In this document: positions 20,597 to 64,000 of the stretch, piece by piece
Layout of the letters: the number at the start of each line of letters is the position of its first letter
Position numbering within the stretch: position 1 is the stretch's first letter
Assembly: GCA_951406725.2 (NCBI GenBank)
Contig: OX597816.1
Location: forward strand, 105,462,001 to 105,526,000
Reading direction: 5' to 3'
Source of the DNA: Octopus vulgaris
Taxonomy: Eukaryota
Length of the DNA stretch: 64,000 nt
Notes under the pieces: generated by a model
Told to the model about the DNA's origin: nothing
The model's input: the letters and a program-made list of their open reading frames with translations, nothing else
Database searches by the model: none
Program-made: the position numbers and the translations under genes

Positions 20597-20654
<58 letters not shown>

Positions 20655-20776
20655 CACAATCAAGGAACGGCCATAATAGGCCATTCACCCACTAGAAATA
20701 ACAGCCAAAAGCTTTAACCGCCAAATAACATTAATTCTGTAAACCAGGAGAAAATTGAAAAACTTTTACCCTGTAA

Positions 20777-20881
20777 TTTCTTAGACGATGCACCGTTTCA
20801 TCTACCGTTTAATGGTAAACTAACCTGATTAAATTAAATCAAGCCAATCCACCATAGGCCCTTAGACTCATCAGTAAGAAA
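20777..20881 (-). ncRNA. Type I hammerhead ribozyme in the inverted copy
   Basis: Reverse complement of copy 1 (TCATCAG at 20868-20874). Confidence 0.88.
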
Positions 20882-20949
20882 TAGACAAGTCGGAACAGAT
20901 ATTTTTCACGAGGCATTCCTCTTGAAAAATATCTGTTCCGACTTGGCTA

Positions 20950-21054
20950 TTTCTTACTGATGAGTCTAAGGGCCTATGGTGGATTGGCTTGATTTAATTT
21001 AATCAGGTTAGTTTACCATTAAACGGTAGATGAAACGGTGCATCGTCTAAGAAA
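20950..21054 (+). ncRNA. Type I hammerhead ribozyme, array copy 1
   Basis: Stem I TTTCTTA/TAAGAAA, core CTGATGA (20957-20963), stem II GTCTA...TAGAT with a long extension, GAAA (21032-21035), near-palindromic stem III ACGGTGCATCGT, GUC cleavage site after 21047. Confidence 0.9.
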
Positions 21055-21439
21055 TTACAGGGTAAAAGTTTTTCAATTTTCTCCTGGTTTACAGAATTAA
21101 TGTTATTTGCGGTTAAAGCTTTTGGCTGTTATTTCTAGTGGGTGAATGGCCTATTATGGCCGTTCCTTGATTGTGATGTTGAACGTAAAAATGGTTTATG
21201 ACTATTTAATTTTTTCCTACTAGGCCGCTGGTGGCAAAAGAATTCTACAAAATTTTTTTTGGCACCCTATATTGATTAATTATGAATTTTCTGGTTAGTT
21301 CCGTAATGGAATCGGTGGCTTATATTTATTTGCTGCCGATAAATTTGGCGCGAGTGCGACGATTTGAAAATTTTAGGTCAGATATTGCCGAGGCAGCAAG
21401 AGGAATGCCTCGTGAAAAATATCTGTTCCGACTTGGCTA

Positions 21440-21544
21440 TTTCTTACTGATGAGTCTAAGGGCCTATGGTGGATTGGCTTGATTTAATTTAATCAGGTTA
21501 GTTTACCATTAAACGGTAGATGAAACGGTGCATCGTCTAAGAAA
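21440..21544 (+). ncRNA. Type I hammerhead ribozyme, array copy 2
   Basis: Same sequence as copy 1; predicted cleavage after 21537. Confidence 0.9.
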
Positions 21545-21930
21545 TTACAGGGTAAAAGTTTTTCAATTTTCTCCTGGTTTACAGAATTAATGTTATTTTG
21601 CGGTTAAAGCTTTTGGCTGTTATTTCTAGTGGGTGAATGGCCTATTATGGCCGTTCCTTGATTGTGATGTTGAACGTAAAAATGGTTTATGACTATTTAA
21701 TTTTTTCCTACTAGGCCGCTGGTGGCAAAAGAATTCTACAAAATTTTTTTTTGCCACCCTATATTGATTAATTATGAATTTTCTGGTTAGTTCCGTAATG
21801 GAATCGGTGGCTTATATTTATTTGCTGCCGATAAATTTGGCGCGAGTGCGACGATTTGAAAATTTTAGGTCAGATATTGCCGAGGCAGCAAGAGGAATGC
21901 CTCGTGAAAATATCTGTTCCGACTTGGCTA

Positions 21931-22035
21931 TTTCTTACTGATGAGTCTAAGGGCCTATGGTGGATTGGCTTGATTTAATTTAATCAGGTTAGTTTACCAT
22001 TAAACGGTAGATGAAACGGTGCATCGTCTAAGAAA
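21931..22035 (+). ncRNA. Type I hammerhead ribozyme, array copy 3
   Basis: Same sequence as copy 1; predicted cleavage after 22028. Confidence 0.9.
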
Positions 22036-22422
22036 TTACAGGGTAAAAGTTTTTCAATTTTCTCCTGGTTTACAGAATTAATGTTATTTTGCGGTTAAAG
22101 CTTTTGGCTGTTATTTCTAGTGGGTGAATGGCCTATTATGGCCGTTCCTTGATTGTGATGTTGAACGTAAAAATGGTTTATGACTATTTAATTTTTTTCC
22201 TACTAGGCCGCTGGTGGCAAAAGAATTCTACAAAATTTTTTTTGGCACCCTATATTGATTAATTATGAATTTTCTGGTTAGTTCCGTAATGGAATCGGTG
22301 GCTTATATTTATTTGCTGCCGATAAATTTGGCGCGAGTGCGACGATTTGAAAATTTTAGGTCAGATATTGCCGAGGCAGCAAGAGGAATGCCTCGTGAAA
22401 AATATCTGTTCCGACTTGGCTA

Positions 22423-22527
22423 TTTCTTACTGATGAGTCTAAGGGCCTATGGTGGATTGGCTTGATTTAATTTAATCAGGTTAGTTTACCATTAAACGGT
22501 AGATGAAACGGTGCATCGTCTAAGAAA
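22423..22527 (+). ncRNA. Type I hammerhead ribozyme, array copy 4
   Basis: Same sequence as copy 1; predicted cleavage after 22520. Confidence 0.9.
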
Positions 22528-22750
22528 TTACAGGGTAAAAGTTTTTCAATTTTCTCTTGGTTTACAGAATTAATGTTATTTTGCGGTTAAAGCTTTTGGC
22601 TGTTATTTCTAGTGGGTGAATGGCCTATTATGGCCGTTCCTTGATTGTGATGTTGAACGTAAAAATGGTTTATGACTATTTAATTTTTTCCTACTAGGCC
22701 GCTGGTGGCAAAAGAATTCTACAAAATTTTTTTTGCCACCCTATATTGAT

Positions 22751-22806
<56 letters not shown>

Positions 22807-22813
22807 GATACAT

Positions 22814-22851
<38 letters not shown>

Positions 22852-23178
22852 GGCCGATGCCAGTGCCACCTGACTAGCACCCATGCTAGTGGCACGTAGT
22901 AAGCACCATTCAAGCATGGGTCAATGCCAGTGCCACCTGACTAGCTCCCCGTGCTGGTGGCATATAAAAAACATCAACTGAATGTGGTCAATGCCAGTGC
23001 TGCCTTACTGACACCTACTGGCTTGCCAGTCCCCCAGTCAAACCGTCCAACCCATGCCAGCATGGAAAACAGACGTTAAACAATGATGATGATGATGATG
23101 TATATATATATATATGTTTGACTAATGGTAGTGCTCCTGCATGGCTGCAGTCAAGCAGCTGAAACAAATAAAAGAAAA

Positions 23179-25527: not shown

Positions 25528-25833
25528 AAGAAAACACCATCCAAGCATGGCCGTCTGCCAGCCTCGTCTGGCACCTGTGTCGGTGGCACATAAAAACACC
25601 ATCCGAGCGTGGCTGTCTGCCAGCCTCGTCTGGCACCTGTGTCGGTGGCACATAAAATCACCCACTACACTCTCGGAGTGGTTGGCGTTAGGAAGGGCAT
25701 CCAGCTGTAGAAACACTGCCAGATCTGACTGGCCTGGTGCAGCCTTCGAGCTTGCCAGACCCCAGTTGAACCGTCCAACCCATGCTAGCATGGAAAGCGG
25801 ACGTTAAACGATGATGATGATGATGATGATGAT
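25528..25833 (+). mobile_element. Retroposon 3' fragment with (GAT)n tail and internal 62-bp tandem duplication
   Basis: Ends ...CCATGCTAGCATGGAAAGCGGACGTTAAACGATGATGAT. Copies at ~25003-25196, 22850-23100, 15870-16070, 44255-44465 and 59020-59180 (+), and 6276-6550 (-). Confidence 0.8.
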
Positions 25834-26021: not shown

Positions 26022-26081
26022 GAGATATTGTCTTTTTATAATCAGGAAATAATTGATGTTTATCAGTTATCAGTTTTATCT

Positions 26082-27389
26082 GAGCTCCCTGAACTTTGCC
26101 CAGACTATTCTTATTCTAGCAGCTACATTTTCAGAGCATGCACCCTTGCTACTGACTTGGTCATCTAGGTAATGGAAGCTATCAACTACTTGTAGTTTTT
26201 CTCCCTGAAATGTAACAGAAGCTGTTCTCTGCACATTTTCAGTGTTTATAGCACCCGAGCATTTGCCACATACAATAACTATCTTCCCAGTTAGCCTTCC
26301 TGTGATATTGCTGCACCTCTTATGTGTCCATATCTTACACTGGGTACATCTTATGGAGTTTCTACCTATGCCTTTTCTACAAATCAAGCAGGGCCATCTA
26401 CCTGAAGGGATTTGTGATTTGTCTGCCTTCCTACTTATTAAGACTTTGGTTTTAGCTAAGCTGACTCTAAGGCCCTTCGATTCTAGACCTTGCTTCGACA
26501 CCTGAAACTTTTCCTCTAGTTCTGATAGTGACTCAGCAATTAGAGTAAGGACATCAGCATAGAGGAGCTCCCAGGGGAATCCTGTCTTGAATTCCTGTTA
26601 TTTCTTGGAGGACTATGATGAATAAAAGGGGGCTGAGGACTGATCCTTGGTGGACCCTTACCCTTATCCGGAATTCTGCACTGTACTTGTTGCCAACCCT
26701 CACCTTACTGACAGCATCCCTGCACATGGCTTGCACAACTCTCACTAACCATTCATGTATCCCTAGTTTCCTCATTGACCACCAGATAAGGGATCGGGGG
26801 ACCCCATCAAAAGCTTTCTCCATGTCAATGACAGCCAGGTACAGAGGTTTATCTTTAGCTAGGTATTTCTCCTGCATCTATCTTACCAGAAATATAGCAT
26901 CAGCAATGCTTTTCCCTGGCATGAACCCAAACTGCATCTCATCAAACTGACTCTCTCCCTATTTAGTTGGGCTATGGGCCTCTCCGTGACCTTCATTACC
27001 TGATCCAACAACTTGATACCTCTGTAATTATTTGTATCTAAAGTGTCACCTTTACCGTTGTATCAGTTGACTATGGTGCCGCTACACCAGGTATTGGGTA
27101 TGACTCCTTCATGTATCACCTGGTTAACTATATGGGTGACTAGGCTATAGCCAACACTGCCAGATATTTTGAGCATTTCTGCAGTGATTCCTGATTCCCT
27201 GTCTTCATACCCTTGAATGCTTTATCTATCAAGGTACTGTCAATTCAGGTAGCTGGTCTCTTTGTTGGGTTGGCATTCAGCAGTATCTCTTTCTCCCATT
27301 CATTCTCTTTATTTAACAGCCTTTCATAGTGGCATCTCCAAACCTCTCTCTTTGCAACCTCGTTTAATGCAAGTGTACCATCATCCATG
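26082..27389 (-). mobile_element. RTE LINE reverse-transcriptase fragment
   Basis: QEKYLAKDKPLYLAVIDMEKAFDGVPR, VHQGSVLSPLLFIIVL, LYAD and GLRVSLAKTKV, plus a Cys-rich insert; frameshifted. Confidence 0.9.
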
Positions 27390-38956: not shown

Positions 38957-41012
38957 CATCATCATCATCATCATCATTGTTTAATGTCCGTTTGTGATGC
39001 TGGCATGGATTGGACAGTTGGACAGGGCTGGCAACGACCCACGCATGAATGGTGCTTATTGCGTACTACCAGCACCAACTAGTCAGGTGGCACTGACATC
39101 GGCCACAACTACAATTTCCATTTGATTGTGATTTGATTTTTGATTTTGATTTTGAATTTGACTCAATAGGTCTTCAAGCACAGCGTGTCACCTGACGATT
39201 CAAAGGTACTTTTTAAATGGGCTGTTTATGTAACACTGGTATAGGCTACAGCTGTGATCTCACTTTATTTGCTGGGTCTTATCACTTGTAGCATATCTCC
39301 AGAGGTCTCGGTCTCTTGTCATTGCCTCTGTGAGGCCAACATTTGAAGGTCATGCTTCACCACCTCATCCCATATCTTCCTGGGTCTCCCTCTTCCATGG
39401 GTTCCCTCCACTGTTAGTTGTTAGGGTGTGACACTTCTTCACACAGCTCTCCTCATCCATATGCAACACATGACCACACGAGCACAGTCATCTCTCTTGT
39501 ACACCACATCTGATGCTTCTTATGTCCACCATTTCTCTCAGGGTGCTTACACTCTGTCGTGTGTGCACACTAACATTACACATCCAGCAGATCATACTAG
39601 CTTCATTTCTTTTAAGCCTACACGTCTTCAGCAGTCATGGCACGTGTTTTACTGCTGTGTAGTATGGCAGTGTGCACACATGCATTATACAATCTACCTT
39701 TCACTCTGAACGAGAGGCCCTTTGTCACCAATAGAAGTAGGAGCTTTCTGAACTTTGCCCAGGCTATTCTTATTCTAGTGGCAATGCTCGCCGAGCATCA
39801 ATCTCCACTACAGACTTGGTCACCTAGGTAGCGGAAGCTATCAACTACTTGTAGTTTCTGCCCCTGGCATATGATAGAATCTGTTTTCTAAGCATCTGCG
39901 GTGTTTATTGCTCCTGTGCATCACAAAAGCTGTCATTCCAGTTAACCTTCCTTTGATGTTGCTGCATCTCTTACGCATCAATAGCTTACACTGGTACATC
40001 TTATAGAGTTTCTACCTACACATTTTCTACAGATAGAGCAGGTTTGTGATGTGTTCACCTTCCTACTTACTAGGACTTTGGTTTTTGCAACATTGAATCT
40101 AAGGCCTTTTGATTTTAAACCTTGCTTCCACACCTGAAATTTCTTCACTAGTTCTGGTAGTGATTCCACTATGAGAGCAAGGTCATCAGCATAGAGAAGC
40201 TTCCAGGGGCAACCTGTCTTGAATTCCTTTGCTTTGTTATTGCCGGGAGGACTATGAGGGGTCCGAGGGCTGATCGTTGGTGAACCCTACTTCTACCTAG
40301 AATTCTTCATTATACTCATTGCTGACCCTTACCTTACTAATGGAATCCCTGTACAGGGCCTGCACAGCTCTTATCAATCACTCATCAATTCCTAGTTTCC
40401 GCATCACGCACCAGATAAGGAATCAGAGGACCCTGTCAAAGGCTTTCTCCAAGTCAACAAAAACTAAGTGTAGGGGTTCATCTTTGGCTAAGTATTTTTT
40501 CTGCAGTTGCCTTACCAGGAATATAGCATCAGTGGTGCTTCTACCTGGCACAAAACTAAACTGCATTTCATCTAAGCAGGCTCTCTCTCTAATTAGTTGG
40601 GCTTTGACCCTCTCTGTGACTTTCACCACCTGATCCAGCAGTTTGATACCCCTGTAGTTATTTCTGTCTAAAGCATCACCTTTACCTTTGTAGCAGTTGG
40701 TTATGGTGCTGCTACACTAGTCATTGGGTTTGACTCTTTCGTGAACTACCTGGTTTACAATACGGATGACTAGACCATAATCCATACCACCAGATATTTT
40801 AAGCATCTCAGCAGTGATTCCTGATGGGCCGGGGCTTTTCCTGACTTTATCTACCAGGGTGCTATCGATTTGGGTAGCTGGTCCCTCTACTGGGTCAACA
40901 ATTGGCAGGCTCTCCTCCTCCCATTCATTCTCCACATTCAACAGCCTTTCATAATGGCTTCTCCAAGCCTCATTCTTTGCAGAATCATTAAAAGCAAGTG
41001 CACCATCATCCA
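38957..41012 (-). mobile_element. 5'-truncated RTE LINE (RT, C-terminus, 3' UTR with (GAT)n tail)
   Basis: GPSGITAEMLK, NYRGIKLL, QFSFVPGRSTTDAIFLVRQLQKKY, FVDLEKAFDRV and LYADDL. Same family as 26082-27389; further fragments at ~43283-43365 and ~61150-61580. Confidence 0.9.
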
Positions 41013-41016
41013 CGTG

Positions 41017-41380
41017 AGTGAAGGTGCATGGCTCAGTGATTAGAGCATGAAGCTTACAATCATGAAGTTGTGAGTTCGATTCCTGGACCGGGCTGCATGT
41101 TGTGTTCTTGAGCAAAACACTTTATTCCATGTTGCTCCAGTTCACTCAGTTGTAGAAATGAGTTGCAATGTCACTGGTGCCAAGCTGTATTGGCCTTTGC
41201 CTCTCCCTTGCATAACATCAGTGGCATGGAGAGGAAAAGCTGGTATGCATGGGTGACTGCTGGTCTTCCATAAAAATAACCCTAGGTTGTGCATTCACCG
41301 GTGAGGTGCCTTTCTGCCCAGACTTGTACCTTGAAGGGGAACCTCTTAGGTGCACCCATGGTCATTTATGACCGACAAAA
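41017..41380 (+). mobile_element. tRNA-derived SINE (family 4)
   Basis: A box TGGCTCAGTGA and B box GAGTTCGATTCC, followed by GTGTTCTTGAGCAAAACACTT; related minus-strand copy at ~2080-2222. Confidence 0.7.
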
Positions 41381-58555: not shown

Positions 58556-58672
58556 TTACTTGAGTCTCTGAGTAACATTCGCCAAAGCTACGGCAAAAGC
58601 CTGCAAGGCAGTGAAGGGATATTGAAAATCCAAGGTATATGCATTGCTGTCAATTCTTCCAAACTGCATTAC
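58556..58672 (-). CDS. TULP4: Tubby-related protein 4, last coding exon including stop codon
   Basis: Acceptor ttttgtcaccag|GTAATG. Translates to VMQFGRIDSNAYTLDFQYPFTALQAFAVALANVTQRLK* (TAA at 58556-58558), matching the TULP4 C-terminus and in phase with the upstream exon. Too short to appear in the ORF track. Confidence 0.93.
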   Translation of the reverse strand, partial: VMQFGRIDSNAYTLDFQYPFTALQAFAVALANVTQRLK

Positions 58673-62881: not shown

Positions 62882-63169
62882 CATATAAATATTAGAACAT
62901 TCCTTTCAGTGCCCCAATAAAAATACATTCTTAAAATAGTTGTTCTTTTTATTTTACTTTAAAACAACAGCATCAAAAATAAAATCAGTAATGATAATTC
63001 TCTTCTACATAGGAGTACAATGTTAAAGATGAAAATAGTGACAGTGGAGTTTATGCCTCTACCAAAGGTATTTGGATTGGGCACAAAGTAAAGCTTACCC
63101 CTCCATTTTGGTACAACAATAACAGTGATAATAATAAATTACAAAAACAAAAGATATCAGTTCTCTCAC

Positions 63170-63361
63170 CTGACGTCCTCTAAACTCAATTTGAAAATTT
63201 TTGGCTGATTCCTGTGTCACACGCCCTCCGAAGTCTAACTGATACACTTGACTACCTTCATTCCATAACGGTGCTTTATTGTACATAACAAACTGACGTC
63301 CTGCACAAACAGTACTGGAACCCATGCGTCGAGGTTCACCCCGACGTCGTGCTTTTCGAAT
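63170..63361 (-). CDS. TULP4: Tubby-related protein 4, penultimate coding exon (C-terminal Tubby domain)
   Basis: 192-nt phase 0-0 exon with acceptor ttgtttcag| and donor CAG|gtgaga. It translates to IRKARRRGEPRRMGSSTVCAGRQFVMYNKAPLWNEGSQVYQLDFGGRVTQESAKNFQIEFRGRQ; NKAPLWNE..QVYQLDFGGRVTQESAKNFQIE is the TULP4-type tubby motif. Confidence 0.93.
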
Positions 63362-64000
63362 CTGAAACAAACAAAAATAAAAATTATATCCTGATTTGTA
63401 TGATACTGCCTTGAGTTCCAATGTCTGACAATCATGATTTCTTAAAGATTTTAGATTTGGGGAGGTTGTGTGTGTGTGTATGGTGGGGGTGGAGTAAGAA
63501 AATGAGAAGCTGTGATGTTAACACCTTTTTTTTCAAAAGTATTAGTACTGCAAAAAAAAAAGAGAAAAATAAATCAAATTGGAAACTCAAACTTATAGTA
63601 TTTATAGGGAACTTATAATTAAATTATGCATGGCAGCTGCTACAGAATACAAGATTGAGTGTGAAGTATAAAAATTTAGATTTTAATAGTTGCACTATGC
63701 ATTTTCACCTCCTCCCCCTCCTCATTATCAACATCAGCAACAGCATTATTAGTTTATTTTTTCCTTACTGACAATCTTACAATAATTTACTGTTGTTCAA
63801 AGTCTAATATTCATAAATCATTTTGACAACAACAAAAGTTAGTGAAGCTACCAGTTGAATTGTCAACCATATTGGAGACTAAATACAACATTTGATCAAT
63901 GTGTTTTAAATTACCCATTTTCTGAACCCTGCCTATTCAGGGTAAATTTTTCTCAATAATTCAAGATTCTTTTCTTTTAATAAACTAAATTGTAGGATCC

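Follow-up and report, generated by a model that had tools for sequence, protein, structure and literature searches.

A window of 64,000 nucleotides of the Octopus vulgaris genome (assembly GCA_951406725.2, contig OX597816.1, positions 105,462,001 to 105,526,000 of the forward strand; positions below are those of this whole stretch, which we call the window) carries at 20653–22753 an insertion made of a very young, non-coding 491-nt repeat with a predicted type I hammerhead ribozyme. This repeat has every testable feature of an animal non-LTR (long terminal repeat) retrozyme, works like a non-autonomous Penelope-like element (PLE) and is not an autonomous PLE. It is very probably a non-autonomous element moved by Penelope-type enzymes, and we put the probability of the whole chain of events, in which a borrowed Penelope-type (probably Neptune) enzyme copies a one-unit circle made by the ribozyme, at roughly 65%. 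The class to which the repeat belongs is itself already known (Cervera and de la Pena 2020, PMC7229834; Li, Clavereau and Pollet, bioRxiv 10.64898/2026.07.22.740005).

The insertion has two arms. A first-pass annotation of this DNA, made from the letters alone, had described 20653–22753 as a single tandem array and had overlooked that its first part, 20653–20924, is an inverted short arm of 272 nt on the minus strand (unit 352–491 followed by 1–131, where unit position 1 is the base after the predicted cut, 491 is the C of the GUC cut triplet and monomer 2, 21538–22028, serves as the reference unit). The 3' end of this arm, at 20653, is the fixed site S (unit 131), and the arm contains a fifth type I hammerhead (20777–20881, minus strand, predicted cut after 20784). 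It meets head to head the plus-strand long arm of about 3.7 units (20923–22753), whose 3' end at 22753 is the fixed site T (unit ~234), and the 2-nt TG overlap at the junction (20923–20924, read by eye) is common to both arms. The four plus-strand hammerheads reported earlier are present in the long arm at 20950–21054, 21440–21544, 21931–22035 and 22423–22527, with a spacing of 490, 491 and 492 nt and predicted cuts after 21047, 21537, 22028 and 22520, and from cut to cut they delimit plus-strand monomers 1 (21048–21537, 490 nt), 2 (491 nt) and 3 (22029–22520, 492 nt). The units are also near-identical and without a real open reading frame, as had been claimed: the monomers (37% GC) differ by homopolymer lengths and one substitution, Tandem Repeats Finder gives a period of 491 with 3.8 copies and 98% matches, and the longest stop-free frame of a circularised monomer is 61 amino acids. 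In the last unit one conserved plus-strand hairpin (22618–22639) stands 12 nt upstream of site S (22651) and another, with compensatory changes (22704–22740), stands 13 nt upstream of site T, and the stretch of ~103 nt between the two sites (22652–22753, plus strand) forms a "tail" that only one end of the insertion has. Both ends of the array adjoin (TA)n, at 20628–20652 on the left (by sequence and tandem-repeat analysis) and at 22754–22789 on the right, which agrees with the target first assigned to it.

This insertion belongs to a large, dispersed family. The exact 23-nt core at the cut site occurs 956 times genome-wide, its reversed control 0 times; contig C1 holds 96 cores in 35 loci, every two-armed one of them head-to-head, and extrapolation from that contig gives about 350 loci in the genome. 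A monomer search of the 2.8-Gb genome returned 1029 first-look candidates, 40 of which were scored and gave 215 matches on many contigs, with 94–100% identity among the matches listed. We examined 72 loci, of which 40 had the best scores and the other 32 followed the order of the pattern list, and long arrays are over-represented among them because of the first 40. No foreign sequence or PLE frame was found inside any of the 72 arrays (the search did not extend to primer-binding sites and polypurine tracts), and none has the reverse transcriptase (RT) plus GIY-YIG reading frame of an autonomous PLE; PLE frames lie elsewhere in the fetched 6.5–10 kb, outside the array, at eight of these loci. 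The array thus stands alone and is not the pseudo-LTR (pLTR) of a full Penelope element. Contigs of eight public runs, under four organism labels, cover the unit, and in runs X1 and X9 they end at unit 238, in X15 at unit 131, after which (AT)n follows, so that the insertion ends are supported independently of the genome assembly; together with the exact cores found genome-wide they rule against an assembly artefact. The join of unit 491 to unit 1 is bridged by contigs in 4/4 runs, and tandem DNA gives the same join. Relatives of the window subfamily include subfamily B (89% identity, period 491), subfamilies C and C2 (71–74% identity, period 474–475, 1834 candidates) and subfamily E (~73% identity, 1654 candidates, a set that may overlap with that of C/C2), and a PLE fragment lies near 2 of 50 diverged-subfamily loci.

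The ends of these insertions are far from random. Arms with their 3' ends facing outward are paired at 51 of the 72 loci, the other 21 being one-armed, and in 43 of the 51 one arm ends near unit 131 (S) and the other near 234–238 (T); there are no S+S and no T+T loci, and the remaining eight are other or mis-parsed, among them L142 and L146, where a different subfamily beside the array was mis-parsed. One-armed loci end at T (15/21), at S (5) or elsewhere (1). Sites S and T, ~103 nt apart, each lie 12–13 nt past a conserved hairpin, the six resolved two-armed loci of subfamily C (72%) are S+T as well, and 102 of 122 3' ends adjoin a TA run. The outer ends, which the first-pass annotation had ascribed to partial units left by rolling reverse transcription, are thus family-wide fixed sites. 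The inner arm ends are scattered over the unit, and at the inner junctions of 50 loci the arms overlap by at least 1 nt (30), abut (8) or are separated by extra bases (12). The family therefore carries the insertion scars of PLEs, namely an inverted shortened copy, a tail at one end and a microsatellite target, and we read the combination of two fixed 3' ends with an inverted arm as the Penelope signature, which points to Penelope-type machinery.

Two loci have unusual arms. One is a two-armed chimera (L144:2126–2781) whose T arm belongs to the window subfamily and whose S arm belongs to a diverged relative (~70%), which implies two templates or a template switch. In the other (L042:4318–4319) both arms end exactly at the hammerhead cut site and form a perfect palindrome, possibly a trace of cleavage in vivo or of one fold-back event.

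By the usual numbering of the hammerhead core, all five copies in the window have an intact type I core (CUGANGA, GAAA and an NUH cut triplet, with stem I open). The Rfam model Hammerhead_1 matches four of the five (three plus, one minus) at 22 bits (E 0.034), below its gathering score of 34, and nothing in the window is found by Rfam at the gathering threshold; because such a score is weak by itself, the case for a hammerhead is built on the intact core and on covariation. Rfam matches to miRNA families in the window are explained by the inversion palindrome and the TA runs. In an alignment of 11 sequences 95.1% of cells are paired and both sides have changed in 13 of 69 pairs, a level that 0/500 shuffles reach (slid controls are 31–48% paired), although these controls flatter the fold, since a hand-drawn structure was applied to related sequences. 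The changes on both sides fall in 3/7 pairs of stem I, 4/4 of proximal stem II and 2/4 of stem III, and in the T hairpin too, and the first pair of stem II is unpaired in 5/11 sequences. Compensatory changes preserve the hammerhead, and stem III stays palindromic, in relatives with identities as low as 71%. This stem is a 12-nt palindrome that is fully self-complementary in 5/5 common forms (the counts of which include overlapping loci), one of which has a loop change from UGCA to UAUA that keeps the palindrome, a compensation that only a dimer needs. To judge from these comparisons, the hammerhead fold and the palindromic stem III first noted in this window are under selection and are kept by compensatory changes. 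The whole monomer also folds better than shuffled sequences, with z −6.15 in linear form (0/100 shuffles as good) and z −4.9 in circular form (40 shuffles). Among the hairpins noted earlier, TTGCTGCC/GGCAGCAA calls for a correction, in that its 3' half lies in a region that differs in the diverged subfamilies (by eye).

What was copied can be approached through the variants within and between loci, scored with homopolymers and gap edges masked. Among the locus-variant states 190 are fixed, 127 are confined to a single unit, 11 are partial and 56 are unassessable; 139 of the fixed states span both arms, and 36 distinct variants are fixed across whole arrays. The 119 full units diverge by 0.29% inside a locus, by 0.30% from arm to arm and by 1.6% from one locus to another. 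Four variants were tested genome-wide and two are private to one locus: the first has four genome copies, which occupy every unit of both arms of that locus, and the second has five, which occupy all covered units (5/5) of a single arm at another locus. With 38 copies genome-wide, the 349C variant of the window insertion was rejected as private. At least one cut site is crossed by 112 of the 122 arms (~229 crossings), 221 of 222 cut-site joins are exact, and arms stop within 10 nt of the cut 6 times (5.0 expected); 5' ends did not accumulate there beyond 3 exact ends among 122 (two in L042, one for each arm, and one in L032). Mirror-image heterogeneity between arms, which a linear multimer should give, was met once, at a CpG site in L047, and is absent in L126 and L065. 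The fixed and private variants and the exact read-through thus argue that a single unit, as first suggested, was amplified before or during insertion from a template continuous across the cut, and the simplest reading of such a one-unit template is an RNA circle.

The events that we propose would start with read-through transcription of a multi-unit arm. The hammerheads would then cleave at GUC, probably in dimers that form through the 12-nt palindrome of the conserved stem III, and a host ligase would close the 491-nt monomer, as the work on coral, mussel and axolotl suggests. An RT-endonuclease dimer would then bind the S–T region and nick both (TA)n strands, and, by analogy with the anole element in vitro, one DNA end would prime at S and the other at T, in keeping with the observed end pattern. 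Each RT could make as many as about six rounds of the template, a figure that fits the arm lengths and the read-through if the template is circular, and short microhomologies would unite the inner cDNA ends into the head-to-head array, as the junctions would allow; one-armed copies would result from loss of one arm. We see about even odds that target-primed reverse transcription by PLE RT dimers is two-ended and of the rolling-circle kind, running on one ribozyme-made RNA circle with one fixed site per DNA end. If so, animal retrozyme arrays would share one explanation with the tandem, inverted and tailed structures of PLEs, and a 491-nt RNA would, with the intact, currently amplifying frames found here, make a test system that is ready to hand.

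Candidate enzymes for such a process are encoded in the same genome. Two intact, young PLE families, whose RT-bearing frames are 781 and 775 amino acids long, co-occur with the repeat; 150 of 6136 GIY-YIG candidates in the genome were scored, and further families may exist. Both frames have RT motifs, a CX2-5CxxC linker and C-terminal GIY-YIG motifs, and Pfam finds RVT_1 (just under the cut-off) and GIY-YIG in both; we call them only Neptune-like because Nematis shares the linker and no tree was built. The 781-amino-acid family has a 479-amino-acid first frame followed by the 781-amino-acid RT-CxxC-GIY-YIG frame, a median divergence of 0.7% over 16 copies, a 40-nt tail and S+T ends in 3/3 two-armed copies. 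In the 775-amino-acid family 40/40 scored copies are identical over 356 nt, full-unit tandems are spaced 4,271 nt apart, the tail is a 32-nt AC-rich stretch and two-armed copies are S+T in 4/4. The unit has no homology to either family (the best local score with the 775-amino-acid family is 25, against 26.9 ± 3.5 for shuffles), and a blastn comparison of the unit with 50 GIY-YIG loci at word size 7 gave one short cut-down copy of the repeat (L073) and three weak matches. As no homologous autonomous element was found among the PLE loci examined, we infer the partnership from the shared scars alone.

Hammerhead-like motifs are present in both families. The 775-amino-acid family (L068:820–3147; L211–L235, on C1 for example at 38876450, 38880721 and 38884992) has a hammerhead-like core, CCGAAGA (by eye), and may itself be copied from a circle. 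The 781-amino-acid family (L101–L116, L119) has promoter-like repeats in its pLTR and a minimal hammerhead-like motif with the core TTGATAA, which we take to be like the U3-A8 variants of PLE hammerheads.

Several observations weigh against a ribozyme-made circle copied by a borrowed enzyme. In addition to the failure to find a homologous autonomous element among the PLE loci compared with the unit, the Rfam score below gathering, the flattering covariation controls and the excess of long arrays in our sample, two of the four variants tested are not private and are subfamily markers. The arrays of L064, L065 and L126 are mosaic, and these, with the two-subfamily arms of L144, mean that not every insertion came from one monomer. 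The lowest-energy fold traps the hammerhead core, the active fold lying 5.2 kcal/mol higher in both the linear and the circular monomer; the palindromic stem III duplex of a dimer is stable (−17.5 kcal/mol), and in these models the trapped monomer core and stable duplex fit dimeric cutting, which is reviewed in PMC6765202 and reported for axolotl retrozymes in PMC7229834. The base of stem II is U.U in 12 loci (30 copies), A.A in 4/5 aligned subfamily C/C2 sequences and A.C in one, an objection softened by the axolotl HHR_Amex2, which PMC7229834 describes as having U.U at that place and yet cutting. Only one of nine Xenopus retrozyme dimers is reported to cut in vitro (bioRxiv 10.64898/2026.07.22.740005), and hammerhead mutants of the green anole element are reported to insert normally, with uncut RNA as the main template (PMC11167929).

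The anole mutants, the trapped core, the spread of non-canonical stem II bases and the mosaic arrays would all suit a different scheme, which we judge unlikely, in which the template of the Penelope-type enzymes is an uncut multi-unit transcript, the hammerhead just rides along or comes into play at a later stage, and uniform masters pass uniform units to their daughters; the lack of a 5'-end pile-up at the cut fits such a linear template equally well. However, a template of this kind can only shorten arrays, and a master's one-unit mutation stays in one unit in its daughters, so that the 36 array-wide variants, the private variants in 4/4 and 5/5 units and the low number (11) of partial states are left unexplained, and the fold is kept by compensation. 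The private variants would be accounted for as well as by an RNA circle if the single unit were multiplied by another route, either by precise RT jumps from the 5' to the 3' end of a cut linear monomer or through a one-unit DNA circle released from an array and transcribed over and over into a uniform multimer, and the three arm ends at the cut site (two in L042, one in L032) are a weak hint of linear cut ends. RT jumps usually leave untemplated or lost bases, unlike the exact joins seen here (221/222), and a DNA circle has no need of a conserved ribozyme. RNA circles have also been shown for other animal retrozymes (PMC7229834). We consider this route decidedly unlikely.

The inverted arm might also arise without priming at both target ends, by fold-back DNA synthesis on the first cDNA, the other end being fixed where an endonuclease cuts at S or T. 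This is improbable. The breakpoints of the two arms are no more than 10 nt apart in 6 of ~50 junctions, where ~2 are expected, the L042 palindrome is perfect, and the tail has been ascribed to endonuclease resolution (PMC8557442), but the two breakpoints are distant in most cases, the longer arm can be either one, the arms of L144 come from two subfamilies, and in vitro both strands are reported to be extended from two RNA start sites that bound the tail (PMC11167929). Finally, orphan pLTRs or satellites grown in place by unequal crossing-over, a counterpart of the local pLTR amplification model discussed in bioRxiv 10.64898/2026.07.22.740005, and assembly artefacts are scarcely credible, given the hundreds of dispersed loci with fixed ends, the 139 variant states common to both arms with few partial ones, the 0/72 arrays with a coding frame and the independent contigs that stop at T (X1, X9) or S (X15) and continue as (AT)n.

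The borrowed-enzyme, RNA-circle reading can be compared with what is known of related systems. The metazoan non-LTR retrozymes of coral, mussel and axolotl, for which PLE helpers and circles as RT templates were proposed (PMC7229834), likewise consist of non-coding units in tandem that each contain a type I hammerhead, with GC below 50%, no LTR and strong self-pairing. Their units are 150–450 nt long as compared with 491 nt here, where stem II is long and stem III is a 12-nt palindrome, and two-armed insertions, two fixed ends and (TA)n targeting are features of the octopus repeat, the word "inverted" occurring 0 times in the main text of that paper. Expression and circles were shown for those retrozymes and are predicted for the present repeat. 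The vertebrate non-LTR retrozymes, described as non-autonomous PLE derivatives in an account of 35 species that names no mollusc (bioRxiv 10.64898/2026.07.22.740005), share with it the class and the proposed PLE link, and its unit falls within their range of 51–972 nt; their link is drawn from co-occurrence and pLTR homology (24/57 Xenopus families), ours from insertion scars, with no homologous pLTR found. For the Poseidon element PAc of the green anole, Frangieh et al. (PMC11167929) report that both target strands are cut and extended and that two internal RNA sites bound the tail, and they predict a dimer. Craig et al. (PMC8557442; Neptune, Naiad, Chlamys) give inverted 5'-truncated copies, a 30–40-nt tail at one end only and a microsatellite bias as PLE hallmarks. 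Endonuclease-bearing PLEs thus resemble the octopus repeat in the inverted 5'-truncated copy, the one-end tail, the AT-rich or (TA)n target and a type I hammerhead with palindromic stem III, and it differs from them in having no coding frame, a tail of ~103 nt (theirs 30–40 nt), the possibility of several full units in both arms and a canonical, not minimal, hammerhead. The non-autonomous Chlamys elements of green algae (such as MRC1, PMC8557442) are also pLTR-forming and frequently occur head-to-tail in multiple copies; they differ in that they generally have 3' sequence in common with their partner, and canonical hammerheads are given for two Chlamys subclades only.

No cephalopod retrozyme and no such scar analysis was found in the literature, although supplements, subscription papers and Repbase could hold either. 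The results bear on the movement of animal retrozymes, on whether their circles truly serve as templates of transposition and on why PLE insertions are tandem, inverted and tailed. In this very young family the insertion scars connect a retrozyme with priming of the Penelope type, and the variant patterns speak for a template of one unit. With intact candidate enzymes encoded in the same genome, the circle model can be tested directly.

Some further observations concern the family and its relatives. At least six subfamily B units of 491 nt (89%) lie in L146:1–2666, ~290 nt from an insertion of the window subfamily, and have a CUGAAGA core, a GUA cut and a perfect palindromic stem III. More diverged relatives stand side by side in L158:72–640, each in (TA)n, and one of them is two-armed with a palindromic junction. 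In runs X15 and X17 the commonest letters over 21538–22028 differ from the window at several places (for example 21709 and 21808), which suggests that the prevailing subfamilies are different in other samples or species. Run X1 shows seven A>G places over the same stretch, four of them at one low depth (~4), and these may reflect the editing of RNA made double-stranded by the inverted arms, or else another subfamily. Runs of T terminate transcription by RNA polymerase III, and with such runs at unit 22, 164 and 207 an origin from that polymerase was rejected as unlikely.

Elsewhere in the window, stop-free frames on the minus strand at 63098–63517 and 58559–58672 carry successive pieces from the C-terminal side of a Tub domain (Pfam PF01167), presumably TULP4-like, and the retrozyme array lies ~36 kb past their stop codon. 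Broken reverse-transcriptase fragments of long interspersed nuclear elements, which we assume to be RTE-like, are present at 26076–26950 and 39978–41121, with RVT_1 matches in two frames tested. Repeat elements with internal tandem units of 67 and 62 nt occupy 22848–23000 and 25531–25662, respectively, and a similar stretch adjoins the array in L049.

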